Positions 834-45,110 of a DNA stretch of 45,110 nucleotides are shown here, piece after piece. Source of the stretch: Candidatus Spechtbacteria bacterium RIFCSPLOWO2_12_FULL_38_22 (GTDB lineage Bacteria > Patescibacteriota > Minisyncoccia > Spechtbacterales > 2-12-FULL-38-22); the NCBI GenBank assembly GCA_001820055.1, contig MHOK01000022.1:1-45110 (forward strand), read 5' to 3'. The notes under the pieces are model-generated. The model was not told where the DNA came from and did no database searches. It saw only the letters and a program-made list of their open reading frames with translations. The position numbers and the translations under genes are program-made. The first letter of the stretch is position 1; each line of letters starts with the position of its first letter.

Positions 834-1520
834 TTACCAACCCTTAACTTCAAGCGCTTTCTGCGCCGCCCCTTCTTGAGCCTCTTGTTTACTAGATCCC
901 CCTCCTTCAGCGACTAATTCTTCTTCCAAATATACGCCAACCACAAAATGCCTGTCGTGATCCGGACCACTTTCTTCTATCACGCCATAAGTAGGAGTTA
1001 TTCCAACCCTATCCTGCGCTTGTTCCTGAAAAGTACTCTTGGGATCGCGATACAACTTATTTTTTAATACTGCCGGCAATTCCTTAATGATGTTTTTTGT
1101 AATAAATTCTTTTGCCGTCTCAAAACCTTTATCTAGGTAAATAGCTCCAATAATAGATTCCACGGCATTTGCCAAAATATACTGACGAGCTCGCCCTGTA
1201 TCCTTTGCCTCCCCCTTACTCAATAGAATATACTCGTTAAAATTCAAGTCAGAAGCTATTTTTGAAAGCATTTTACTATTGACCAACGCGGCTCTCCAGC
1301 TTGTTAAGTCACCCTCTGGGTTATCGTATTTATTATATAGATATTCAGTAACTATTAACTCTAAAACAGCATCCCCCAAAAACTCCAGCCTTTCGTTGTG
1401 ATCAAGGCCAGTATCGGAATGCTCGTTTAAGTAAGAGCGATGTATAAAAGCCTGCATTAGCAAACCTTTGTTCTCAAAATAAATCCCCAACCCTTCCTCA
1501 AATTTAGAAAAATCTTTCAT
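834..1520 (-). CDS. rnc: Ribonuclease III
   Basis: RNase III signature ERLEFLGDAVLE and a C-terminal dsRBD-like block (GGGSSKQEAQEGAAQKAL). Confidence 0.93.
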   Translation of the reverse strand: MKDFSKFEEGLGIYFENKGLLMQAFIHRSYLNEHSDTGLDHNERLEFLGDAVLELIVTEYLYNKYDNPEGDLTSWRAALVNSKMLSKIASDLNFNEYILLSKGEAKDTGRARQYILANAVESIIGAIYLDKGFETAKEFITKNIIKELPAVLKNKLYRDPKSTFQEQAQDRVGITPTYGVIEESGPDHDRHFVVGVYLEEELVAEGGGSSKQEAQEGAAQKALEVKGW

Positions 1521-4697: not shown

Positions 4698-5345
4698 TCA
4701 ACTTAACCTAAAACTTTTTCTATGAATTGGGCTTTGTCCATATTTTGCGAGCATCTTATAATGCAACTCTGTTCCATACCCTTTGTGCAAGTCAAACCGA
4801 TACTGCGGATATTTTTTATGATAATACTTACTCATGCTTCTGTCTCTCTTAACTTTAGCTACAACAGAAGCGGCGGCAACCGATGGTACTAAATTATCTG
4901 CGCCCCGAATGCGTTCATGTGCCAAGTTCTCAAAAATTTTTTGTTTGTATGGGAATCTATCTACAATTGCAAAATCTGGTTTTATTCGCTTATCGGCGAA
5001 TAATTTTTTTACAGCGCGCCGCATTGCAAGCACAGTAGCATGATGAATTTGTTTTTTATCGATGTTAACAGGAAAGACAGAGGCAGTCGCAAAATCCACC
5101 AATCCTTTATTTTTCATATCACAAAACATTTCGTATAATTTCTCTCTTTGTTTTGCGCTTAACAATTTAGAGTCCCGTAACCCCACTATAGGGTTGCCTG
5201 GCAACCCTATAGTGGGGTTACTATAAAACATAAACGCAGCCACAGTTACAGGCCCCGCAAGCGGTCCCCTGCCTACTTCGTCTAAACCTACAATATGTTC
5301 ATATCCATATTTACGTTTTAACTTTTTTTCGTAATTAAAATCCAT
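4698..5345 (-). CDS. rnhB: Ribonuclease HII
   Basis: GLDEVGRGPLAGPV and DSKLLS motifs. It carries an in-frame palindromic insert (see the repeat at 5177-5221). Confidence 0.92.
   Translation of the reverse strand: MDFNYEKKLKRKYGYEHIVGLDEVGRGPLAGPVTVAAFMFYSNPTIGLPGNPIVGLRDSKLLSAKQREKLYEMFCDMKNKGLVDFATASVFPVNIDKKQIHHATVLAMRRAVKKLFADKRIKPDFAIVDRFPYKQKIFENLAHERIRGADNLVPSVAAASVVAKVKRDRSMSKYYHKKYPQYRFDLHKGYGTELHYKMLAKYGQSPIHRKSFRLS
5177..5221. repeat. Palindromic element (TATAGGG family), copy 1, in frame inside rnhB
   Basis: GTAACCCCACTATAGGGTTGCC-T-GGCAACCCTATAGTGGGGTTAC, perfect 22-nt arms. Translated as SNPTIGLPGNPIVGL. Confidence 0.9.
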
Positions 5346-5472: not shown

Positions 5473-8400
5473 ATGTCACCCGCTCTCCAACCAAAATTTA
5501 CACATCTTCATGTACATACTCACTACTCGCTCCTAGACGGACTAAGTAAAATTGATGAACTTTTAGATTATGTAAAAGAGTTGGAAATGGATTCCATAGC
5601 AATTACGGATCATGGAAATTTGTACGGCGCTATTGAATTTTACCAAAAGGCAAAAAAAAGAGGACTAAAACCTATCCTAGGATGTGAGATGTACGTTGCC
5701 GATGATATGCGCGAAAAAAAACCCGGCAGAATGGACGGTAAAAACTACCATCACATCGTGCTTTTAGCAAAAAATAATATCGGATATCAAAATCTTATTA
5801 AACTTGTAAGCGCCGCGCATCTAGAAGGTTTTTACTATAAACCTCGTGTAGATAAAAAATTACTTGCTGAACATAACGAGGGAATAATTGCTCTTTCAGG
5901 ATGTTTGGGAGGAGAACTTTCACGCGCCCTTCTTAAAAACAAAACCGAAAAAGCTTTGAAAATTGCTCAAGATTATGCTGACCTTTTTGAACCTGGGAGT
6001 TATTACATTGAAATTCAACAACATCTAAACACACCCGAACAAAATGAAGTTACTCCACAGCTTGTGGAACTTGCAAAAAAACTGAATTTGCCAATCGTTG
6101 CCACACAAGATTCACACTACACACACAAAGAAGATTCGCGCGCGCACGATGTGCTTCTTGCGGTACAGACTGGAAACACAGTAAACGACGAAGATCGTCT
6201 TACTTTTAAACACGACAACTTCTCTGTGGCGACAACCCAAGAGATGATGGAAAAATTTAGCCAGTGGCCAGAAGCAATCCAAAACACACAAAAAATCGCT
6301 CAAGAATGCAATGTGGAACTTACCCTTGGAAAATTTATATTTCCAAACTTTAAACTTGAACTTGGAAAAACCGCAAACCAAATGCTGGACGAACTAACGT
6401 TTAAAGGTATGCGTGAGCGAGGACTGGACAAAGATGCAGAAATTGAAAAACGACGACTCTATGAGTTAAGCGTTATTAACAAAAAAAACTATGCGCCTTA
6501 TTTTCTCGTGGTTGCCGATATAATGCAATTTGCCCACGAAGCAAATATCTATACTACGGTTCGAGGTTCTGTGGCTGGTTCATTTATCGCCTATTTATCA
6601 GGTATTACAAACGTAAATCCCATAGAATTCAGGCTTCCATTTGAGCGATTCCTTAACCCCCACCGCCCATCCGCGCCAGATATTGATATGGACTTTGCGG
6701 ACAACCGCAGACAAGAAGTTATTGAATATACCAAAAAAAAATACGGCGCACAAAATGTAGCTCAAATTGGAACCTTTGGTACTATGATGGCGCGAGGAGC
6801 GGTTCGGGATATAACTCGCGCTTTAGGAAAATCATACGCATCCGGTGATAAAATCGCCAAACTTATTCCTCTGGGATCGCAGGGCTTTCCAATGACTATA
6901 AAACACGCTCTTGAACTTGAACCAACGCTCAAACAGATGTGGAACCAAGATAGCGAAGCGCGAGAAATTTTGGATTTAGCAGAAAAATTAGAGGGCACAG
7001 TACGACACTCGTCAGTCCACGCCGCAGGAGTTGTAATAGCGCCAAAACCACTTACCGAATATGTGCCCCTTCAATATGATCCAAAGGGTGAAAACAACTT
7101 GGTAACGCAATACGATATGCATACTGTAGGTGAAGATGGCGTAGGGCTTCTTAAATTTGATTTTCTGGGAATTCGCAATTTAGCCATTTTAGAAAATGCC
7201 GTACGCTTAGTTAAAAAACGTATGAACATTGATATTAATATCGAAAATATTCCTCTTGATGACAAGCTCACTTTTGACATGTTAGCCCGTGGCGAAACCG
7301 AAGGACTGTTTCAGCTGAACGGATCGGCAATGACTAAATACCTAAAAGAACTTAAACCCAACACAATTTATGATATCAACGCTATGATCGCGCTTTACCG
7401 CCCCGGACCTATGAATAACATTCCTGATTATATCGCGCGCAAACAAGGTCGTAGTCCTGTTAAATACTTTCACCCAAAAGCTAAAAACTTTCTTGAAAAA
7501 TCATATGGAATTTTAGTATATCAAGACGACCTTCTATTTGCGGCAATAGAACTTGCTGGATATACTTGGGAAACGGTTGATAAATTGAGAAAAGCAGTAG
7601 GAAAAAAAATTCCTGCTGAAATGGCCAAACAGCATAAAATTTTTGTGGAAGGATGCCAAAAATATAGCCAAATGACGAAAGAAAAAGCAGAGCAAATTTG
7701 GAAGTTGTTTGAACCATTTCAGGGTTATGGCTTCAACAAAGCGCATGCCGCATGCTACGGCCGAGTTGCTTATCAAACTGCATACATGAAAGCTAATTTT
7801 CCCGTCAACTATATGTGCGCTGTGCTAACTGCAGAATCTGGCGATATGAGTAAAATGACCGTTGTCATGAATGAGTGTAAACGAATGGGTATTGAAATAC
7901 TTCCCCCATCCATCAATGAGAGCGACGAAGAATTTACAGTAACAGTCAATAACAATATAAGATTTGGTCTTACCGCAGTTAAAAACGTAGGAAGCAACAT
8001 TGTGCATGAAATTAAAATAGAAAGAGAAAAAAATGGACGTTTTAATTCCATAGAAGAATTGCTTGAAAGAATAAGTTCCAGAGACCTAAATAAAAAATCC
8101 CTTGAAAGTTTAATTAAAGCAGGCGCTATGGACGAACTATCCTCTAGGAGCACCCTCCTTGAAAATATGGAGAGTTTGCTTCAATATTCAAAGGAGGCAA
8201 AAGCGGCGCACAATTCTGGACAGGAAAGCTTATTTGGTGCTAATACAAAAAGGGGGTTATTATTAAAAGAATCCGAACCCGCAGATATTAAGAAAAAACT
8301 GACATGGGAAAAAGAGTTGTTGGGATTTTATGTATCAAGCCATCCGTTGAAGCAATACGCCCACAAACTATTAAACGTTACACCAATACAAAAATTGGGC

Positions 8401-8664: not shown

Positions 8665-8688
8665 CCAATTCAGTGAGTAACAAGTAAC

Positions 8689-8758
8689 AAGCCTGCCTGC
8701 CGGCCCGCTTCGCCAGAGCTTTAGCGAGGCGAGTAGGCAGGTAACTAGTAACAAGTAA
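8689..8758 (+). repeat. 70-nt GC-rich repeat, copy A (downstream of dnaE)
   Basis: Identical over 70 nt to the reverse complement of 17819-17888. Contains CCTGCCT...AGGCAGG pairing and ends in GTAACTAGTAACAAGTAA. Confidence 0.9.
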
Positions 8759-18329: not shown

Positions 18330-18486
18330 TTTTTATTCGCTAACGCTCATAATAATATGATTCGAATATACGAATGTTTATGCGAATCTACAAATAATAC
18401 ACATGCCCTTGCTTGTTTTTGTATAAAATTCGTAGATTCGAATAATTATTCGTTGATTCGCATCATACCATAAACGAAGCGCGAGC
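18330..18486 (-). repeat. Duplicated intergenic spacer, copy 1 (nusG-rplK)
   Basis: The whole spacer is homologous to 19033-19190. The core at 18346-18491 differs from 19050-19195 at about 5 positions by eye. It forms a long imperfect hairpin built from ATTCG/CGAAT units. Confidence 0.9.
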
Positions 18487-19032
18487 TTATATTTTAGTTA
18501 TTTGCAAGTAGTCAAGCTCAACCGGAGTTTCGCGCCCAAACATGTTCACTAAAACATTTATTTTCCCTTTTTCTTCGTCCACGCTAGAAACTTTTCCATC
18601 AAAATCTTTAAACGGACCGTCGTTAATTTTTACCACGTCACCCACCTTCGCGTCAATCTTATGACGAGGCTCATCAATACCCATTCTTTTTTGTAGTTCA
18701 TCTATTTCTTGTTTTGACACAGGAATCGGGGTGGTGCCTGAACCAACAAATCCCGTAACGCGCGGTGTATTTCTTACAACGTACCAAGAATCATCTGTAA
18801 CAATCATTTCAACTAACACATAACCTGGAAAAATACGCTCTTCAATAATATGACGCTTTCCACTCCTTATTTTTATCTTCTTTTCTTTTGGTACTATTAC
18901 ATTAAAAATTTTATCCTGCATTCCCAAGGATTCTATTCTTTGAAGTAAATTCTGCCGAACAGCATCTTCGTATCCCGAATATGTATGGATTACATACCAC
19001 TTTCTTCCTCTTTTTAATTTTTGTTTTGGCAT
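18487..19032 (-). CDS. nusG: Transcription elongation factor NusG
   Basis: NGN domain (WYVIHTYSGYE) and a KOW motif (GDVVKINDGPFKDFDGKV). Confidence 0.95.
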   Translation of the reverse strand: MPKQKLKRGRKWYVIHTYSGYEDAVRQNLLQRIESLGMQDKIFNVIVPKEKKIKIRSGKRHIIEERIFPGYVLVEMIVTDDSWYVVRNTPRVTGFVGSGTTPIPVSKQEIDELQKRMGIDEPRHKIDAKVGDVVKINDGPFKDFDGKVSSVDEEKGKINVLVNMFGRETPVELDYLQITKI

Positions 19033-19190
19033 TTTATTTCGGCTACTGCCTCATAAAAATATGATTCGAATATACGAATGTTTATACGAATCTACAAATA
19101 ATACATACGCCTTTGCTTGTTTTTGTATAAAATTCGTAGATTCGAATAATTATTCGTTGATTCGCATCATACCATAAACGAAGCGCGAGC
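19033..19190 (-). repeat. Duplicated intergenic spacer, copy 2 (secE-nusG)
   Basis: See 18330-18486. In both copies the repeat begins at the stop codon of the upstream gene and runs to the start codon of the downstream gene. Confidence 0.9.
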
Positions 19191-19385
19191 TTATAATACA
19201 AATTTAGATAGTATCCATTGAAAAAACAAGTCTAATCCCCCCAAATAAATCCCTGTCGCTATAGATACAATCAAAATAAGTAATGTATAGTTTATTACCT
19301 CGCGTCGAGTTAACCAATTAACTCGCTTCATCTCTATTTTGACCTCTCTTAAAAAACGAACGATTTTTGAAAATATAGCTGTCAT
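19191..19385 (-). CDS. secE: Preprotein translocase subunit SecE
   Basis: 64 aa. The segment EVKIEMKRVNWLTRREV followed by a single TM helix, in secE-nusG-rplK synteny. Confidence 0.88.
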   Translation of the reverse strand: MTAIFSKIVRFLREVKIEMKRVNWLTRREVINYTLLILIVSIATGIYLGGLDLFFQWILSKFVL

Positions 19386-19582: not shown

Positions 19583-21808
<2,226 letters not shown>

Positions 21809-22488: not shown

Positions 22489-23616
22489 TTATCGTAACTC
22501 TGCGTTAAATTGTTCAGCTGTTTGGTTGTAAACCTTTTCCTGAATGTCATTAACTTCTTCATTTGTAAGAGTGCGCTCGTTGCTTCTATAAATAATTCGG
22601 TAGGTATAACTTATTTTGTCTTTTCCAAATTTTTCTTCATTTGCATATTTATCCAAAAGCTCAACTTCTTCAACTAAATCGCCACCAATGTCTCGAATAA
22701 GGTCAAAATAATCGTTTGGCACAAATCCTTTATCCACGATAAAAGAAACATCTCTTGGGGCAGGAGGGTACTTACTAACCTCTTCAAATTTGTTGCCAAG
22801 ATGAAGTTGTTTTTTGATTCTATCATCCTCAGACCACAATAATCTGATGTCGGGCAAATCCGTACTTAACATAGCAAGGCGCTCTAGCCCAAAACCAAAA
22901 GCCCATCCATTATATACGTCGGGATCTACGCCCAAATTTTTAAGGACAACACCGCGCACCAAACCGCTTCCCAAAACCTCTAACCAATTGCCACGAACCT
23001 TTATTTCTAATTCAACACTGGGGTCTGTATATGGAAATTCGTCCACGTTAAAACGGTGTTCAATGTCATCTCCATAAATTTTTCTAGCTATTTTTAAAAG
23101 GATATCCTGCAGATCTTGGATTGTAATAATCTTTTTGTTTTTTGGAGTAAGATACCATCCGTCTATTTGGTGAAACACATTCATGTGCTGACGATCCAGT
23201 TCGTCTCTGCGATATACTTTTCCATATGCGATAGCTCCAACGGACATACTGTTTTTTATCTTCTGTTTTACTGCTTCCGCCATTAAATGGTAATACCACA
23301 TAATAGTAGTATGGGTACGCAAAATATGCTTCTCATCTGCATAATAGGTATCGGATTTACTGCGCGCTGGATGATCTTTAGGGAAATTAAATAAATCAAA
23401 ACTAATATCGGCTCCAACAATTTCTGGTATGTTCACAATATCAAAATCTTTAAAATCCGGAAGTTCTAATACCCGATGTACAATTTCTGCTATGGGACTG
23501 CCCTCCTTTCGCGACAAATCAGGCATACTTAAAAAACGCTTTATGCGTTTACTATTAGTATCATCCTTATTTTCAAGAGATTTTTTGATTTTTTCCTCTT
23601 CCTCAAAAGTGACCAT
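22489..23616 (-). CDS. pheS: Phenylalanyl-tRNA synthetase, single-chain type (PheS catalytic core fused to an FDX-ACB anticodon-binding domain)
   Basis: Motif 2 YRRDELDRQHMNVFHQIDG and motif 3 GWAFGFGLERLAML. C-terminal SKYPPAPRDVSFIV...YRIIYRSNERTLTNEEV matches FDX-ACB. The ATG at 23616 is preferred because upstream track codons overlap a promoter. Confidence 0.88.
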   Translation of the reverse strand: MVTFEEEEKIKKSLENKDDTNSKRIKRFLSMPDLSRKEGSPIAEIVHRVLELPDFKDFDIVNIPEIVGADISFDLFNFPKDHPARSKSDTYYADEKHILRTHTTIMWYYHLMAEAVKQKIKNSMSVGAIAYGKVYRRDELDRQHMNVFHQIDGWYLTPKNKKIITIQDLQDILLKIARKIYGDDIEHRFNVDEFPYTDPSVELEIKVRGNWLEVLGSGLVRGVVLKNLGVDPDVYNGWAFGFGLERLAMLSTDLPDIRLLWSEDDRIKKQLHLGNKFEEVSKYPPAPRDVSFIVDKGFVPNDYFDLIRDIGGDLVEEVELLDKYANEEKFGKDKISYTYRIIYRSNERTLTNEEVNDIQEKVYNQTAEQFNAELR

Positions 23617-23623
23617 CTTATGT

Positions 23624-23652
23624 ATTTTAACGCATTTTAGGAGTAAAAACAA
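23624..23652 (-). promoter_or_regulatory. Putative pheS promoter, possibly giving a leaderless mRNA
   Basis: Minus strand TTGTTT-17 nt-TAAAAT, then 7 nt, then the ATG at 23616. No Shine-Dalgarno sequence. Confidence 0.4.
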
Positions 23653-23685
23653 GTGGATATTTTAACGACTATTAGCCTACTATAG

Positions 23686-23720
23686 GGTTGCCAAGCAACC
23701 CTATAGTAGGGTGTCAACTC
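23686..23720. repeat. Palindromic element (TATAGGG family), copy 2, intergenic
   Basis: CCTACTATAGGGTTGC-CAA-GCAACCCTATAGTAGG, with 16-nt arms. Confidence 0.85.
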
Positions 23721-26227: not shown

Positions 26228-26452
26228 TTAGGTCTTATTAGCGGTGTTGTGTGAGAACACTCCGTGTCCAGAGGGAGTCTGACGCAACCCGATAAGACGC
26301 TTTGCGTTCCTTGCGACCATCGCCTTCGCGTCACCAAAACGCATCTCGCCCTCAGGAGTACCAGAAGGCCACCCTTCAAGTCCCGGGAGTTGCGTATCGC
26401 AACACGGGGGCAGGTGGCACACATGCTTGTCCTTTGTTCCGCCTCCAGCCAT
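26228..26452 (-). CDS. Hypothetical GC-rich 74-aa protein (CHLPPCC motif); could instead be a structured RNA
   Basis: Consensus Shine-Dalgarno AAGGAGG 7 nt before the ATG. The ORF fills the space between the promoter (26485-26513) and the terminator. All three frames are open here, so coding status is uncertain. Confidence 0.45.
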   Translation of the reverse strand: MAGGGTKDKHVCHLPPCCDTQLPGLEGWPSGTPEGEMRFGDAKAMVARNAKRLIGLRQTPSGHGVFSHNTANKT

Positions 26453-26484
26453 TAACTACCTCCTTCGTAGCTGTCTAGTTTAAA

Positions 26485-26513
26485 TTTATATCATTCATTA
26501 CAATCTGTGTCAA
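26485..26513 (-). promoter_or_regulatory. Near-consensus promoter of the GC-rich 74-aa unit
   Basis: Minus strand TTGACA-17 nt-TATAAA. Confidence 0.65.
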
Positions 26514-26519
26514 TATAAC

Positions 26520-26548
26520 TTGCTTTATGCTTGATAAATTGATATAAT
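26520..26548 (+). promoter_or_regulatory. Promoter of the tRNA operon
   Basis: TTGCTT-17 nt-TATAAT. The tRNA 5' end lies 6 nt after the -10 box. It sits back to back with the 26485-26513 promoter. Confidence 0.6.
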
Positions 26549-26553
26549 TTTAC

Positions 26554-26625
26554 CGCGGGGTAGTGAAGTAGTATCACGCGAGGCTCATAACCTTGAGATC
26601 GGGGGTGCAATTCCTCCCCCCGCAA
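26554..26625 (+). tRNA. tRNA(CAT), initiator-like (C1:A72) with atypical D- and T-loops
   Basis: Hand-folded as CGCGGGG TA GTGA AGTAGTA TCAC G CGAGG CTCATAA CCTTG AGATC GGGGG TGCAATT CCTCC CCCCGCA A. CCA is not encoded. Confidence 0.7.
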
Positions 26626-26763
26626 CAAAGTGGAGGGTATACAAAGCAAGGCATCTTGCTTTGTATATGGAATTGCAAGACGGACTGAGCGAAGCGAAGG
26701 AGTCCGGGCAGGAAGCACTTAGCGATGCCGAGCTTATCGAGGCAGAGCTTAATGACTTGACGC

Positions 26764-26783
26764 CAATTCCTCCCCCCGCAACA
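26764..26783 (+). repeat. Exact 20-nt duplicate of the tRNA(CAT) 3' end
   Basis: CAATTCCTCCCCCCGCAACA occurs at 26608-27 and again at 26764-83. Confidence 0.9.
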
Positions 26784-26879
26784 CTTCGACTCGCTTTGCT
26801 CGCTCAGTGCAAGCTACTTCGACAAAGCTTGCCCGGAGTTTGCCGAGTCCAAATGTATTGTTATTGGAGTAAACAACAA

Positions 26880-26957
26880 GGCTGGGTAGCTCAGGCGGTT
26901 AAGAGCAGTACCCTCATAAAGTACAGGTCGTGGGTTCGAGTCCCACCCCAGCCACCA
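26880..26957 (+). tRNA. tRNA(CAT), either elongator Met or Ile2 (lysidine)
   Basis: GGCTGGG TA GCTC AGGCGGTTAA GAGC A GTACC CTCATAA AGTAC AGGTC GTGGG TTCGAGT CCCAC CCCAGCC A CCA. CCA is encoded. Confidence 0.88.
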
Positions 26958-26959
26958 AT

Positions 26960-27034
26960 GCGGGCGTAGCTCAGTTTGGTTAGAGCGCTTCCCTGTCACG
27001 GAGGAGGTCGCCGGTTCAAGTCCGGTCGCCCGCG
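26960..27034 (+). tRNA. tRNA-Asp(GTC)
   Basis: GCGGGCG TA GCTC AGTTTGGTTA GAGC G CTTCC CTGTCAC GGAGG AGGTC GCCGG TTCAAGT CCGGT CGCCCGC G. Confidence 0.9.
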
Positions 27035-27041
27035 CAAATAC

Positions 27042-27069
27042 AAAAGACACCCAATCTTGGGTGTCTTTT
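27042..27069. terminator. Bidirectional terminator (tRNA operon and the convergent minus-strand operon)
   Basis: AAAAGACACCC-AATCTT-GGGTGTCTTTT. Confidence 0.75.
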
Positions 27070-27085
27070 GTATTACCAGAAAACT

Positions 27086-27622
27086 CTATTCCATTCCAAA
27101 TTCTCTAAAAATTTTTTTATAAATATCGATTGTGCGTAGTACCGCTTGACGACTCAACTCATAATTGGGGTCATGAGCTAAAAAATTGCGTACCTTATGA
27201 ACTCGCCATGCCTCATCTAGATATGGAAACTGTCCAGGGCGTATATTTTTCATCCTATCACCCATCGTATCCCCCTTATATCCAAGTGCCTGTATAAGTT
27301 GGTCTAAAATAGAATCTGCTTCAATTATCGCCAGTTTCCAATCAGAAACATAATTTGACTGCAATTTTAAGTCCACTCTACTTAAGTTAGAAAAAACATC
27401 TTTTGTGGATATATTATCTGAACGAAACGCTTTTTGTACATTTCCTACTTTAGATTTTATAGTTTCTGTTTTTACTAATAACCTAATCCACAGTATCAAA
27501 AATAATGCAGAGATAACTGCGCTAAAAAGTTGAATTATTACAATGGGCCTAGAATATAAAATTCCGTCTAATATTTCTATAACGTCCTCCAGGGACCGCA
27601 AAAATAAATCAACTAAGCTCAT
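27086..27622 (-). CDS. Membrane-anchored protein with a C-terminal HEPN-like (DUF4145-like) RNxxxH motif
   Basis: One TM helix (IVIIQLFSAVISALFLILWIRLL). C-terminal WRVHKVRNFLAHDPNYE matches the Rx4-6H motif. Confidence 0.5.
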   Translation of the reverse strand: MSLVDLFLRSLEDVIEILDGILYSRPIVIIQLFSAVISALFLILWIRLLVKTETIKSKVGNVQKAFRSDNISTKDVFSNLSRVDLKLQSNYVSDWKLAIIEADSILDQLIQALGYKGDTMGDRMKNIRPGQFPYLDEAWRVHKVRNFLAHDPNYELSRQAVLRTIDIYKKIFREFGME

Positions 27623-33039: not shown

Positions 33040-33693
33040 CTATTGTTGCACCCTAGCAATTCCTAATTTATTTACAAAAATATGTATAACTCTATCTTCA
33101 GAATCGCGTAATGTTACCTGCGCCTCATTGCCAGCTAAAGACGGTTCAAATAGAGTTCTTGGGTCTGGGGGTAAAAATGTAATTACAAGCTGACATGGCG
33201 TACCACTACATGGATTTAGTGTACTTACGGTTATATCCTTTTCTAAAGTAACTGTGGACACTTTTTCCCCATAAGGTGTGGCAACGGTTGCACCTTCGCA
33301 CGACGCAGAACCCCCTGAAGCATCAAAAGACTGGTTAGAGTTACAATCTGCAAAAATTATAATGTCCTGTGAATTCTGTTCTAAAAATAACCCAAACCCC
33401 CCCGGACTTACTGAATCACCGTGCAACTTGCCCGCCAAAGAGTTGCTTACAGCTTCTGAAATTGCCTGAGTGACTCTATGAGCCGCCCTTTGGATGGCTA
33501 AGTTTTTTTCACCTTGTCTAAAATTCAAAAAAATTATTCCAGAAATCATAATCGTAATACCCATTAAAACAGTTAACTCTATCAGGGTAAAACCTTTACT
33601 AATGCGTAGTAAGCCCGCCTGCCGGTCGGGCAGGTAGTGAGCCTGCCTGCCGGTCGAGCAGGTAGTAAGTAGTTTTTTAATTTTCTTTTTCAT
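33040..33693 (-). CDS. Type IV minor pilin/pseudopilin with a repeat-containing leader peptide
   Basis: KG/FTLIELTVLMGI after a 35-aa leader. The ATG at 33693 is chosen because the upstream block is shared with the 32404 gene. Confidence 0.75.
   Translation of the reverse strand: MKKKIKKLLTTCSTGRQAHYLPDRQAGLLRISKGFTLIELTVLMGITIMISGIIFLNFRQGEKNLAIQRAAHRVTQAISEAVSNSLAGKLHGDSVSPGGFGLFLEQNSQDIIIFADCNSNQSFDASGGSASCEGATVATPYGEKVSTVTLEKDITVSTLNPCSGTPCQLVITFLPPDPRTLFEPSLAGNEAQVTLRDSEDRVIHIFVNKLGIARVQQ
33606..33672 (-). repeat. 2.4 x 28-nt GC-rich tandem hairpin repeat inside the prepilin leader
   Basis: GTAGTAAGCCCGCCTGCCGGTCGGGCAG followed by GTAGTGAGCCTGCCTGCCGGTCGAGCAG followed by GTAGTAAGTAG. 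Each unit contains CCTGCC...GGCAGG-type pairing. Confidence 0.9.
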
Positions 33694-42616: not shown

Positions 42617-43336
42617 ATGCTCCTATCTAAAATAAGAAACTTTGTAACAGAATCCGTAATCCCCTCCTACTGTTACGGCTGTAAAAAAGAAAGCACTTAC
42701 TTGTGTGAGGATTGTTTTGAAATTATAAATTCATTTTCAAAAAGCATATGCCCTCATTGCAAACAAGCTCTAGCCTTTGGGAAACTACCTAACACTTGTC
42801 GCCGCGAACTTTATTTAGACCGTATATTCAGCTGCGCAGACTATAAAGATGTGCGAATAAAAAACTTGATAAAAGACTTGAAATACAATTACTCTTTCGC
42901 GCTTGCAAAACCATTAGCGGAATTTGGATATTGGTGGCTGCAAAAAAACGAATATGCAGACGAAATTAAAAATAATATTGGTTTAATAATTCCTATTCCA
43001 TTACATAAAACTAAATTAAAAAAACGTGGATTTAACCACGCAGAACATCTTGCAAAACATTTAGGAGTTTTGCTAGATATTCCAGTTGCTAATAACCTTC
43101 TTACTAAAAATCGGCGTACAATACCTCAAATTGAAACTGAAACCAAAGAACAACGACAAGAAAATTTAAAAAACGCTTTTAGCACTATAGGGACTCCTGG
43201 AGTCCCTATAGTGAGCACAAATGTTTTGCTAATTGATGATGTACTCACCACCGGATCCACCCTTCGTGAATGCGCAAAGGTTTTGCGAAAAAATGGAGTT
43301 AAAGAAGTTTGGGCGCTAACTATCGCACAAGACTAA
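42617..43336 (+). CDS. comFC: ComF-family phosphoribosyltransferase (ComFC)
   Basis: N-terminal Cys clusters (CYGC..CEDC, CPHC) and the PRTase motif LLIDDVLTTGSTL. Confidence 0.85.
   Translation: MLLSKIRNFVTESVIPSYCYGCKKESTYLCEDCFEIINSFSKSICPHCKQALAFGKLPNTCRRELYLDRIFSCADYKDVRIKNLIKDLKYNYSFALAKPLAEFGYWWLQKNEYADEIKNNIGLIIPIPLHKTKLKKRGFNHAEHLAKHLGVLLDIPVANNLLTKNRRTIPQIETETKEQRQENLKNAFSTIGTPGVPIVSTNVLLIDDVLTTGSTLRECAKVLRKNGVKEVWALTIAQD
43183..43213. repeat. Palindromic element (TATAGGG family), copy 3, in frame inside comFC
   Basis: CACTATAGGGACTCC-T-GGAGTCCCTATAGTG. Translated as STIGTPGVPIVS. Confidence 0.88.
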
Positions 43337-43940: not shown

Positions 43941-44661
43941 CTATTTTATGTAAACTTCGTTGCCACTTTTTTTAAATTCCTCCAAAAATTGTTTTTCTAT
44001 AAAATTATTTAGGTAAGATATGTTGTGAAAGAGTAAGCTTGAATCTAAAACTGCTTTTCTTCTCCTTAGATCACCTGCGTATTGTGGCAAATCCTTATAT
44101 TCTCCCAAATCTAACCTCCGAGACTCTTCTACTGCTTCGTCAAACGATACAAGAAACTTTTTTGTCTTAAAAATAATATAGTTTCTTGTTCCAAATAAGC
44201 AAGACTTTACAAAATGCAGTGACGCAGTGTCCTTGTCGCCATTGCGATACGAATGTGTGGCCGCCAACGCATAACCGAGGTTAAACCTCACTTCTTGAAG
44301 TAAATCCAACATTGCAATTTCCGGCTTCTCAAGATTTTCAACTACCCTTTCTCCTGATACTGTTTTTGCCGATTCTGATAATTCTCTGATATAAATATTT
44401 TTTTGAAACGGCGTATCTATATTGCCTTCAACAAATTCCTCATACAAAAACGGGAACACGCTTACCCCCCCATTTTTTAATGTCCAATTTGTTTTTTATT
44501 TCCATGCGACTTACATAGTTATTCTTTTTCATTAAAACCCCTATTTCATAATCGCTCCCCTCGTAAAAATCGTCGCGCGCCCTAGATCCATAAATAAAAA
44601 TAGAAGCAGGATTGAATGCTTCTTCAATATCTTTAATCAATTTTTCTAAATTTACTTTCAT
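43941..44661 (-). pseudogene. Pol-beta-superfamily nucleotidyltransferase with a helical C-terminal domain, split by a frameshift at a G7 tract
   Basis: N-terminal ORF (44440-44661) carries the NTase motif YGSRARDDFYEGSDYEIGV. The downstream 172-aa ORF (43941-44459) is offset by one base. The G7 tract (44465-44471) and A6 tract lie just upstream of the junction. Confidence 0.5.
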
Positions 44662-44666
44662 AAAGT

Positions 44667-44698
44667 TGGCGTCCTCGAGAGGATTCGAACCTCCGACC
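44667..44698 (-). pseudogene. 3' fragment of tRNA-Arg (variable loop to CCA)
   Basis: 32 nt identical to 44930-44961. Confidence 0.85.
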
Positions 44699-45075
44699 AT
44701 GTCCTGTATTTAACAACTGAAGTTTATTTAGCGGAGCGTATATTGTTTATATTTGAGGCACGAGGAGCGACGCGATGCGGTTGCATCGTGAGCAACAAGC
44801 AACAAAAAATATAAGCAATATACGCCCGCCCCTTGGGAAACAAAATAATACATTATCTGCTGTGTTACTCCTTCTCAAGGTAGTAAAACTACCTTTTCGT
44901 CGGAGTGTCTCGCACTAGTCCTGCATCTTTGGCGTCCTCGAGAGGATTCGAACCTCCGACCTCAACCTCCGCAAGGTTGCGCTCTATCCAGCTGAGCTAC
45001 GAGGACATCAAAGATGCAGGATCTAATATATTATTTTGTTTCTAAGCTAAACTTCAGTTGTTAAATACAGGACTT
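44699..45075 (-). mobile_element. 377-nt cassette with perfect 26-bp terminal inverted repeats, carrying a tRNA-Arg gene
   Basis: The inverted repeats GTCCTGTATTTAACAACTGAAGTTTA at 44701-44726 and 45048-45073 are perfect reverse complements. The cassette is flanked by the two halves of a tRNA-Arg gene. Confidence 0.5.
44930..45006 (-). tRNA. tRNA-Arg(GCG), CCA encoded
   Basis: GTCCTCG TA GCTC AGCTGGATA GAGC G CAACC TTGCGGA GGTTG AGGTC GGAGG TTCGAAT CCTCT CGAGGAC G CCA. Confidence 0.88.
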
Positions 45076-45110
45076 ACCTCCGCAAGGTTGCGCTCTATCC
45101 AGCTGACCTG
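45076..45110 (-). pseudogene. 5' fragment of tRNA-Arg (D-arm to the 3' side of the anticodon stem), runs off the right edge
   Basis: 31 nt identical to 44965-44995. The last 4 nt of the window differ at 2 positions. Confidence 0.7.

Follow-up and report, generated by a model that had tools for sequence, protein, structure and literature searches.

Can a transfer RNA (tRNA) gene be broken by an insertion that brings its own replacement, and would such an insertion be a mobile element, an intervening sequence or the relic of an old accident? The question is raised by one end of the 45,110-nt contig MHOK01000022.1 (assembly GCA_001820055.1), which in its full length is called the window here. 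Positions 44667-45110, read on the minus strand, hold two parts of a tRNA-Arg gene and, between them, a cassette with terminal inverted repeats and a complete tRNA-Arg(GCG) of its own. The explanation that we favor, with roughly even confidence, is an old, self-compensated disruption of a resident tRNA-Arg(GCG) gene, called R0, which was kept and reshuffled by homologous recombination. Judged by its sequence, R0 would be a dead split pseudogene, and the inner gene would supply tRNA-Arg(GCG). The window has 38% GC and codes for the bacterial proteins Pol III alpha, LigA, GyrB and GatB as well as for a type IV pilus cluster, and homologues of its PilM assign the organism, a groundwater bacterium, to Candidatus Spechtbacteria / Spechtbacterales (Patescibacteria).

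The nested tRNA genes

The cassette is 373 bp long and is located between tRNA positions 42 and 46. Its parts and flanks are given below in the order of the minus strand; handles beginning with L denote the contigs and loci with which the window was compared.

45107-45110 (minus): last 4 nt of a 20-nt GC palindrome (CCTGCCTGCCGGCAGGCAGG); L001 8801-8831, also in L002-L004 and L006
45076-45106 (minus): 5' fragment of the outer (resident, R0) tRNA-Arg, positions 12-42, identical to the inner gene
45074-45075 (minus): AA filler of the left junction; the junction GGAGGT-AA-GTCCTGTA is identical in L021
45048-45073 (minus): left arm of the 26-nt perfect inverted repeat, the outermost part of the leader S; 92% identical to its L021 homologue
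45007-45047 (minus): remaining 41 nt of the leader S, where the second repeat (45017-45042) and the leader/trailer repeat (45007-45021) have their left arms
44930-45006 (minus): complete inner tRNA-Arg(GCG) of X type, acceptor GTCCTCG/CGAGGAC, encoded CCA; presumably the working gene
44917-44929 (minus): trailer from the CCA onward, an inverted copy of the tRNA-adjoining leader (11-nt exact complement, p about 0 from shuffles)
44863-44916 (minus): hairpin-containing insert of about 55 nt within the inverted S copy, placed by global alignment; no other copy found
44837-44862 (minus): right arm of the second repeat; complementarity 85%, with G.U on the tRNA-sense strand at one mismatch
44727-44836 (minus): GC-richer structured module of about 110 nt within the inverted S copy, with the 24-bp stem and the GTGAGCAACAAGCAACAA motif
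44701-44726 (minus): right arm of the 26-nt perfect inverted repeat
44699-44700 (minus): AT filler of the right junction
44667-44698 (minus): 3' fragment of the outer (R0) tRNA-Arg, positions 46-77 including CCA, identical to the inner gene

Most of these parts had been described in a sequence-only reading of the window, and the description holds. ARAGORN and the Rfam tRNA model (65.9 bits) each call one complete tRNA-Arg(GCG) at 44930-45006, and the two 26-nt arms are 100% complementary, a match of which none is expected by chance and none was seen in shuffles of the window. The outer pieces are identical to the inner gene over 31/31 nt on the 5' side and 32/32 nt on the 3' side, and TGA alone is missing between them. 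Also present are a 12-bp leader/trailer repeat that overlaps the inner CCA, a stem of about 24 bp in the cassette interior, and the motifs GTGAGCAACAAGCAACAA at 44788 and GTGAGTAACAAGTAACAA at 8673, which both match with none expected by chance. The terminal repeat has the end sequence GTCCTGTATTTAAC, and the cassette contains no open reading frame (ORF) of more than 47 aa.

The symmetry of the cassette goes well beyond its tips. The leader S comprises the 69 nt (45007-45075) between the outer 5' fragment and the inner tRNA, and the perfect 26-nt repeat is no more than its tip; a further 26-nt repeat of 85% (44837-44862 / 45017-45042) extends the symmetry to the whole leader. A global alignment of S with the 233 nt past the inner tRNA, taken as reverse complement, shows each of the three blocks of S again, inverted and in order from the CCA onward (tip 26/26, second block 22/26, then the tRNA-adjoining leader), and the inverted copy is broken by insertions of about 55 and about 110 nt. 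Hence, the original cassette was a foldback structure consisting of S, the tRNA and inverted S. Leader/trailer complementarity of this kind is restricted to nested tRNA-Arg cassettes and was seen in 0/20 other tRNA genes examined.

The larger of the two insertions, which contains the long stem and the GTGAGCAACAAG motif, has homologues at other loci, namely at L015 1232-1335 (+), upstream of pilM, and at L024 7755-7858 (-), upstream of clpB. In a comparison of only three sequences, seven base pairs of this module are retained through compensatory changes, and the module sits about 65-140 nt upstream of differing genes (a nucleotidyltransferase (NTase) fragment in the window, pilM in L015 and clpB in L024). 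No Rfam family matches it, and it may represent a non-coding RNA or a regulatory element that has yet to be described.

The window stops within the outer tRNA gene, and other contigs show what lies beyond position 45110. Contigs of the same species, found by exact-sequence match to the phosphoribosyltransferase gene, came from five ENA assemblies, a JGI metagenome and an NCBI metagenome-assembled genome (MAG). The nested structure is present in six contigs from independent assemblies, four of which reach 4-9 kb past the window end. The end of the window falls inside the 20-nt GC palindrome CCTGCCTGCCGGCAGGCAGG, which splits the outer tRNA between positions 11 and 12, and the longer contigs complete the outer 5' end, since the remaining positions 1-11, GTCCTCGTAGC, lie upstream of the palindrome. 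Two more 5' fragments, GTCCTCGTAGC and GTCCGTAGCTCAG, are found in L001 between the DUF5673 gene and the outer gene. The contigs differ among each other: L004 has a G18>A exchange in the outer copy only, and L006 has a 131-nt tandem duplication of the unit of 5' fragment and S, with one single-nucleotide polymorphism (SNP) separating its two copies. On their sequences, these strain variants behave as real alleles.

These contigs bear directly on whether the structure is an assembly artefact at a contig edge, an alternative left standing by the sequence-only reading. The window does end within a palindrome in a repeated tRNA segment, a typical break point for an assembler. Yet the same structure recurs in six separate assemblies or samples, four of them running 4-9 kb beyond this point, its repeats, of 31-33 nt, fall well short of the k=141 to which the k141 contig names point, the SNP and the 131-nt duplication with its own SNP resemble genuine alleles, and homologous junctions exist in other species. 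An artefact is hardly credible against this evidence, and the alternative can be dropped. Such loci do disrupt short-read assemblies, and their partial and nested copies can mislead tRNA counts in MAGs.

The palindrome in the D arm of the outer tRNA-Arg is itself one copy of a family of GC-rich hairpins built on CCTGCCTGCCGG. Members of this family are located at 8691-8745, 33606-33661 and 21638-21720 in the window and at 7569-7590 and 8812-8831 in L001, and one of them takes the form of three in-frame 27-nt tandem repeats at the 5' end of the gyrB ORF (19583-21799). Scattered in an AT-rich genome, the family looks, by its sequence, like an element of the repetitive extragenic palindrome (REP) type.

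The locus in related species and its conserved leader

The order DUF5673, tRNA-Arg(GCG), phosphoribosyltransferase/pilM is conserved, so that the same locus, which is readable in six other species, could be compared across species; the comparison comprises seven species' loci. The tRNA-Arg locus is not on contigs L025-L028, and synteny is also lost in L019 and L020. A search for DUF5673 homologues returned three proteins only, each on a short contig, and a phosphoribosyltransferase-based search of genome contigs for related loci gave only one distant match from Saccharibacteria. Metagenome contigs searched with the 32-nt tRNA 3' half yielded four unrelated genomes, all with plain tRNAs.

Two relatives have uninterrupted tRNA-Arg genes at the syntenic site, which is empty in this sense in both; this is consistent with an insertion as previously proposed. 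In L014 (PilM 76% identical), the site holds a plain N-type tRNA (acceptor GCGCCCG, no encoded CCA) 7 nt past the upstream gene, and in L023 (PilM 55%) a plain X-type tRNA (acceptor GTCCTCG, encoded CCA) lies at the same site directly after the DUF5673 gene. L021 (PilM 59%) has an outer 5' fragment that covers positions 1-42 and, after AA, counterparts of the 26-nt arm and of the leader, which lead to a complete X-type tRNA; the left junction is identical to that of the window, and neither the right arm nor the 3' fragment is present at this locus. The outer fragment of L021 is of N type up to about position 22 and of R0 type ("CAACC-type") over positions 24-42, and thus looks like a recombinant, or chimera, from its sequence. 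Since the left junction is common to species whose PilM proteins are only about 59% identical, the insertion must be old.

The remaining loci reveal a second cassette in the same gene. L024 (PilM 56%) begins with a 5' fragment (1-18), a 19-nt repeat, a complete N-type tRNA and the inverted 19-nt repeat; then come a fragment (24-40), a sequence like the 26-nt arm of the window (TAATTAACAACTGAAAT) and a second tRNA, which is chimeric, with an X-type 5' strand and an N-type 3' strand. L016, L017 and L018 (PilM 59%) have two 5' fragments (1-20/22), each followed by CCCCGCACTAAAATTT, then a complete N-type tRNA and the inverted copy AAATTTAGTGCGGGG, beyond which lie a short GTCCGAC...GTCGGAC hairpin and a degenerate 3' fragment starting at position 45. 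The displaced fragment of L017 is analogous to the one at 44667-44698 in the window. This second cassette, C2 (L024, L016/17), has unrelated inverted repeats and an N-type tRNA, and sits in the D loop, between R0 positions of about 18-22 and 24; the cassette of the window is termed C1.

A single scheme, drawn from sequence comparison, accounts for all of these states: R0 would have been broken by C1 at 42/46 and by C2 at about 18-22/24, and recombination would then have removed or duplicated pieces in each lineage. The state of L021 would follow from recombination between the two 3' repeats, and the chimeric second tRNA of L024 from an early crossover in the 3' repeat. Unequal exchange within the 31-nt 5' repeat would yield the duplication of L006, and exchange on both sides a plain N (L014) or plain X (L023) locus. 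In this sense, the differences between strains and species fit recombination between direct tRNA repeats, and two recombinant products are on view, the 131-nt duplication of L006 and the chimeric tRNA of L024.

How well S has been retained can be put in numbers. Between the window and the species of L021, the pilM coding sequence is 68% identical, the DUF5673 coding sequence 62%, two tRNA-Ser genes 67% and 74%, the 100 nt after the inner tRNA 48% and the inner tRNA-Arg 88%, while S is 91% identical (45007-45075 vs L021 2148-2216) and the outer fragment 12-42 is 93.5% identical. The inner tRNAs of the two differ by three compensatory stem changes, which shows that the block was not freshly transferred. 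Given the divergence of pilM, the tRNA-Ser genes and the flanks, S must be under constraint, at least as strongly as the tRNA, and it is conserved even in L021, where it has no inverted partner.

As to what S might do, folding of the region yields nested helices (z-score -13.7), and helices of 26, 26 and 12 bp surround the inner tRNA. In a primary transcript, S and its inverted copy would form a long leader-trailer helix around the pre-tRNA. By analogy, this helix could be a processing stem of the ribosomal RNA (rRNA) type and a substrate of RNase III, a gene for which lies at 834-1520(-) (E = 1.6e-43), and such a role may explain the perfect complementarity of the 26-bp tip. At one site the window differs from L021 and L024, with TATTTAAC in place of their common TAATTAAC, and its right arm carries the matching change; this single site hints that the arms co-vary.

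How the cassette may have arisen

The history that we favor begins with a foldback cassette inserted between R0 positions 42 and 46, with a loss of 3 nt and with AA and AT fillers at the junctions. Later, two hairpin modules entered the right arm of the cassette, and a REP-like GC palindrome the D arm of R0. The half-tRNA direct repeats (positions 1-42 and 46-77) would serve as homology arms of a structure without a mobility enzyme of its own, and recombination within the genome or with the DNA of relatives could duplicate, trim, remove or re-install the cassette. In the window, these repeats are 32 nt long on the 3' side (44667-44698 vs 44930-44961), with an independent 31-nt 5' repeat on the other side. 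For the first insertion, our best guess is that the S-tRNA unit, copied by snap-back, was captured when a double-strand break was repaired. This fits an inverted arm that begins right after the CCA and the outer end point shared by both arms; C2 does not have this snap-back geometry. The outer gene is called dead on account of its palindrome, its 3-nt loss and one SNP.

Several points weigh against this history. Freed of the palindrome, the joined outer exons still pass as a tRNA in ARAGORN, and a promoter scan of the locus and S gave no sigma-70 consensus. No copy of the cassette, the 26-nt repeat or S occurs at any other locus searched, so that its mobility is something we only infer. The argument for an ancestral as opposed to a repeated insertion depends on seven species' loci without a species tree. 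As L014, the closest sampled relative, is empty, an ancient origin requires a clean secondary loss there, and the 100% identity between outer fragments and inner gene calls for either gene conversion or a re-insertion of more recent date. Furthermore, at 31-42 nt the homology arms come close to the minimum length for RecA-type recombination.

The sequence-only reading had taken the cassette for a mini-element that inserted into tRNA-Arg while supplying a replacement copy, and called it potentially addictive. A cassette with an intact copy is indeed what we find, but a recent or active mobile element is not. There is no target-site duplication, the flanks being GGT-AA and AT-GGTC and the TGA of the target being lost. 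A Pfam scan of most window ORFs of at least 130 aa, together with precomputed Pfam matches for the upstream genes of L001, revealed no transposase or integrase, the rest of the genome being unseen. The 26-nt repeat has no other copy in the 45-kb window (at up to 3 mismatches) or in the 28 loci, a 22-mer of the inverted repeat has no exact match in GTDB species genomes or IMG/VR, and a 30-mer of S that is conserved in two species has none among viral contigs. INPHARED phages match the cassette through its tRNA part only, and, among the loci compared, S is seen elsewhere solely at the homologous locus of L021; a complete genome of the species was not available to these searches. Nor is addiction supported: recombination between the direct repeats can delete the cassette and leave a working tRNA, as L014, L023 and L021 suggest.

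How do other origins fare against these observations? A non-autonomous foldback transposon, or miniature inverted-repeat transposable element (MITE), whose 26-bp terminal inverted repeats are bound by a transposase encoded elsewhere, which targets tRNA-Arg(GCG) and whose cargo tRNA prevents harm, would explain why the tips are perfect (26/26) and the inner arms diverged (22/26), as if the tips were recognized by a protein. It would also suit the presence of two different tRNA-carrying, inverted-repeat cassettes in one resident gene, both with GTCC...GGAC-like ends, and the identity of the L021 junction despite a different type of outer tRNA. Such a transposon is nevertheless unlikely: the target was not duplicated but lost 3 nt (C1) or about 5 nt (C2), the structure is single-copy in the window, the 28 loci and the searched collections, no transposase was seen in the scanned window ORFs or the adjacent genes called in L001, and the left arm of L021 is 92% conserved without a right arm, such that paired transposon ends do not account for its conservation. 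Scars of site-specific integration, left by phages, plasmids or islands that used tRNA-Arg as attB, duplicated parts of the tRNA as attL/attR and were later lost but for short remnants between the tRNA pieces, are in line with classical 3'-end direct repeats at other tRNAs of the lineage (tRNA-fMet, and tRNA-Ser(GCT) in L021, L023 and L024), with variable small cargo genes beside tRNAs (GIY-YIG, MazE-like, NTase) and with a displaced tRNA-Arg 3' fragment that begins in the variable loop, which we take to be near the sublocations typical of att positions. But an att duplication is one repeated segment and not a pair of complementary 5' and 3' pieces that form a gene, the mirror-image 69-nt arms and the complete internal tRNA are left unexplained, and no integrase was found nearby among the scanned ORFs and adjacent genes, which makes this origin rather improbable. 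A bolder proposal is that C1 (window, L021, L024) and C2 (L016/17, L024, L021) represent undescribed, transposase-free foldback selfish DNA with a tRNA-Arg(GCG) cargo that homes via its half-tRNA arms into chromosomal tRNA-Arg(GCG). The cargo tRNA would neutralize the damage done by the cassette, which could spread between related genomes by recombination, for instance after DNA uptake (type IV pilus genes are encoded), and might have originated when a leader-tRNA molecule primed its own (snap-back) copying from the CCA end. We hold this proposal to be doubtful.

No mobile element at all would be needed if the structure were an accident of replication or repair in situ, in which a fork stalled at the highly transcribed, structured tRNA gene, and template switching with snap-back synthesis produced the partial duplications and the inverted leader copy in one complex event. 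The inverted arm begins exactly past the tRNA 3' end, where the acceptor stem permits fold-back priming, both arms stop at the same outer boundary, the junctions consist of small deletions and 2-nt fillers and not of duplications, and the structure is single-copy. However, in plain loci the tRNA lies within a few nt of the DUF5673 stop codon, and S is thus not native upstream sequence and must have come from elsewhere; moreover, two unrelated cassettes in one gene would require two accidents, and the outer pieces are direct rather than inverted, which is not what a pure fold-back duplication would produce. We therefore regard an accident of this kind as a fairly remote prospect. The sequence-only reading had also considered a very long structured intervening sequence. 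In that case, the outer halves would be exons of a functional tRNA that the 26-bp helix brings together, and the 377-nt insert with the inner tRNA would be excised at the RNA level, much as in a split tRNA, an archaeal intron or an intervening sequence cut out by RNase III. The helix adjoins both half-tRNAs, the region folds in nested helices as described above, ARAGORN accepts the joined exons as a 74-nt tRNA-Arg, and an RNase III gene is present. Against this stand the bacterial host (Pol III alpha, LigA, GyrB) and the lack of any group I or II intron at Rfam gathering thresholds in the window; a permissive Rfam scan (E up to 1) of the locus in L001 (8600-9300) found tRNA only and no intron family. 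The exons are without 3 nt of the anticodon stem and variable loop and are split again by the 20-nt palindrome, with which ARAGORN calls no tRNA; of the two "exons", L021 has only the 5' one, together with S; and L004 lost the conserved G18 in the outer copy only. The break, at positions 42/46, also differs from the site of anticodon-loop introns at 37/38. Because ARAGORN does accept the palindrome-free joined exons, it is these several lesions together, and no single one, that lead us to reject the intron, which is very improbable.

Three further candidates were discarded. An invertible segment was rejected because the orientation is the same in all six assemblies, and a decayed tandem array of three tRNA genes because its deletions would need end points that match the mirror-image ends of S. 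As a general origin, retro-copying of a mature tRNA was rejected, since C2 lacks a CCA and its repeat begins 9 nt past the discriminator base.

To return to the self-compensated disruption of R0, its simplest outcome may be an old fossil reshaped by recombination. If it is merely the fossil of one old accident, the locus is a curiosity of little wider consequence. If spread via tRNA halves is true, it would be minimal selfish DNA in organisms with tiny genomes, and would account for the N- and X-type tRNA-Arg(GCG) "alleles" at one locus across Spechtbacterales.

Neighbouring features and comparison with known systems

The genes for DUF5673, an NTase fragment, a 172-aa protein and a phosphoribosyltransferase are the neighbours of the cassette. 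Directly after the outer 3' tRNA fragment, at 43941-44700 (-), lie the 86-aa NTase fragment (Polbeta/NTP_transf_2) and, overlapping with it, the 172-aa ORF, which has no Pfam match. The two could be a frameshifted or two-part NTase pair of the toxin-antitoxin type. The pair is not present in the relatives, and L014 has mscL in its place. The first ATG taken by the ORF caller (44700) falls inside the cassette junction, and the real start is probably the ATG at 44661.

Other tRNA genes of the lineage are also followed by partial copies of themselves. Downstream of an initiator-type tRNA-Met at 26554-26626 (+) lie a GC-rich insert of 137 nt and, behind it, a 19-nt repeat of the stretch from the T loop to the 3' end of this tRNA (26764-26782); a permissive Rfam scan (E up to 1) of 26400-27100 detected tRNA only. 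The core of this insert (GAGTCCGGGCAGGAAGCACTTA...ACTTGACGCC) is homologous to the insert after tRNA-Ser(GCT) in L024, and each insert precedes the 3' end of its host tRNA and follows an inverted part of that end. A long hairpin lies behind tRNA-Ser(GCT) in three species (L021 1318-1406, L023 2539-2656 and L024 3228-3385, minus strand), the 3' strand of which is an 18-19-nt copy of the tRNA 3' end and the 5' strand the complement of this copy; the inner hairpin has compensatory changes between L021 and L023 (GGGAGTGCC/GGCACTCCC vs GAGAATGCC/GGCATTCTC). The gap between tRNA-Ser(GCT) and tRNA-Ser(TGA) harbors differing genes, a 101-aa GIY-YIG nuclease (L001 7675-7980 (-)), a MazE-like antitoxin (L016 5380-5589) or two small ORFs (L014 876-1485), which suggests that the region downstream of tRNA-Ser(GCT) is a hot spot for cargo.

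Elsewhere in the window, the phenylalanyl-tRNA synthetase (22489-23652 (-)) is apparently a single chain of 387 aa (tRNA-synt_2d and FDX-ACB), which resembles the monomeric mitochondrial type, unlike the usual bacterial alpha2-beta2 enzyme. The nusG ORF (18487-19032) is flanked by the two copies of a 146-nt direct repeat (18346-18491 and 19050-19195), which are 97% identical. A 37-nt perfect-palindrome hairpin, CCCACTATAGGGTTGCC.GGCAACCCTATAGTGGG, occurs three times (5182-5218, 23676-23712 and 43181-43217), and its copies are probably shared terminators or another small repeat family.

How, then, does the nested tRNA-Arg locus relate to systems that are known? tRNA genes are classic landing sites of mobile DNA, and the known way to escape the damage is to replace the displaced 3' end. 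Here, an entire spare gene comes with the insert, which lies between inverted repeats and has no enzyme of its own that we could see, and a second, unrelated cassette of the same design occupies this gene in sister species. Islands and prophages that target tRNA genes, with a tyrosine integrase and attB in the tRNA, reportedly restore the 3' part of the gene, as is said to have been surveyed by Williams in 2002. Like them, the cassette has a tRNA as its target, brings replacement tRNA sequence and is followed by the displaced 3' fragment as a downstream direct repeat, and the classical pattern is also seen in the same genome at tRNA-fMet. Unlike them, it carries a whole tRNA with its own leader, has left both a 5' and a 3' fragment behind, is bounded by inverted repeats, measures only 373 bp and contains no integrase.

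Bacterial MITEs and foldback elements, such as Correia, RUP and the Rickettsia palindromic elements, are a second point of comparison. The cassette shares with them its small size, its non-coding nature apart from the tRNA, its terminal inverted repeats, the ability to sit inside genes and the folding as one long hairpin. It differs in that there is no target-site duplication, that it is single-copy where searched, that no cognate transposase was found and that it carries a functional gene identical to its target. With rRNA operons, whose processing stems are cut by RNase III, the locus has in common a stable RNA between a long complementary leader and trailer and the presence of an RNase III gene; in contrast to these stems, L021 keeps S without a complementary trailer, and cleavage is here only predicted. 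We know of no bacterial tRNA with a leader-trailer processing stem of the rRNA type.

The literature offers two further parallels among interrupted tRNA genes. Homing group I introns in bacterial tRNA genes, the subject of the review PMC3984707, are likewise elements in tRNA genes whose harm is neutralized and which can spread via the homology of flanking exons. Here, a spare gene copy takes the place of splicing, and the boundary lies between anticodon stem and variable loop instead of in the anticodon loop. Archaeal split or intron-containing tRNA genes with complementary flanks, the subject of the reviews PMC4090602 and PMC3978253, also have a long helix that adjoins the 5' and 3' tRNA parts. 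They differ from a locus with a bacterial host, incomplete halves, an L021 state without the 3' half and further lesions that speak against a use of the outer gene. In the literature that we searched, we found no account of nested or inverted-repeat-flanked tRNA genes in bacteria of the Candidate Phyla Radiation, which is weak negative evidence.

Two cassettes of the same design in one gene, together with the strong conservation of S, make this locus genuinely odd. By analogy, its closest relative in concept would be the tRNA-targeting island or prophage, and its closest relative in form the foldback MITE. Since defining traits of islands, MITEs and tRNA introns are missing here, we regard the locus as a self-compensating tRNA-gene insertion that stands outside those families.

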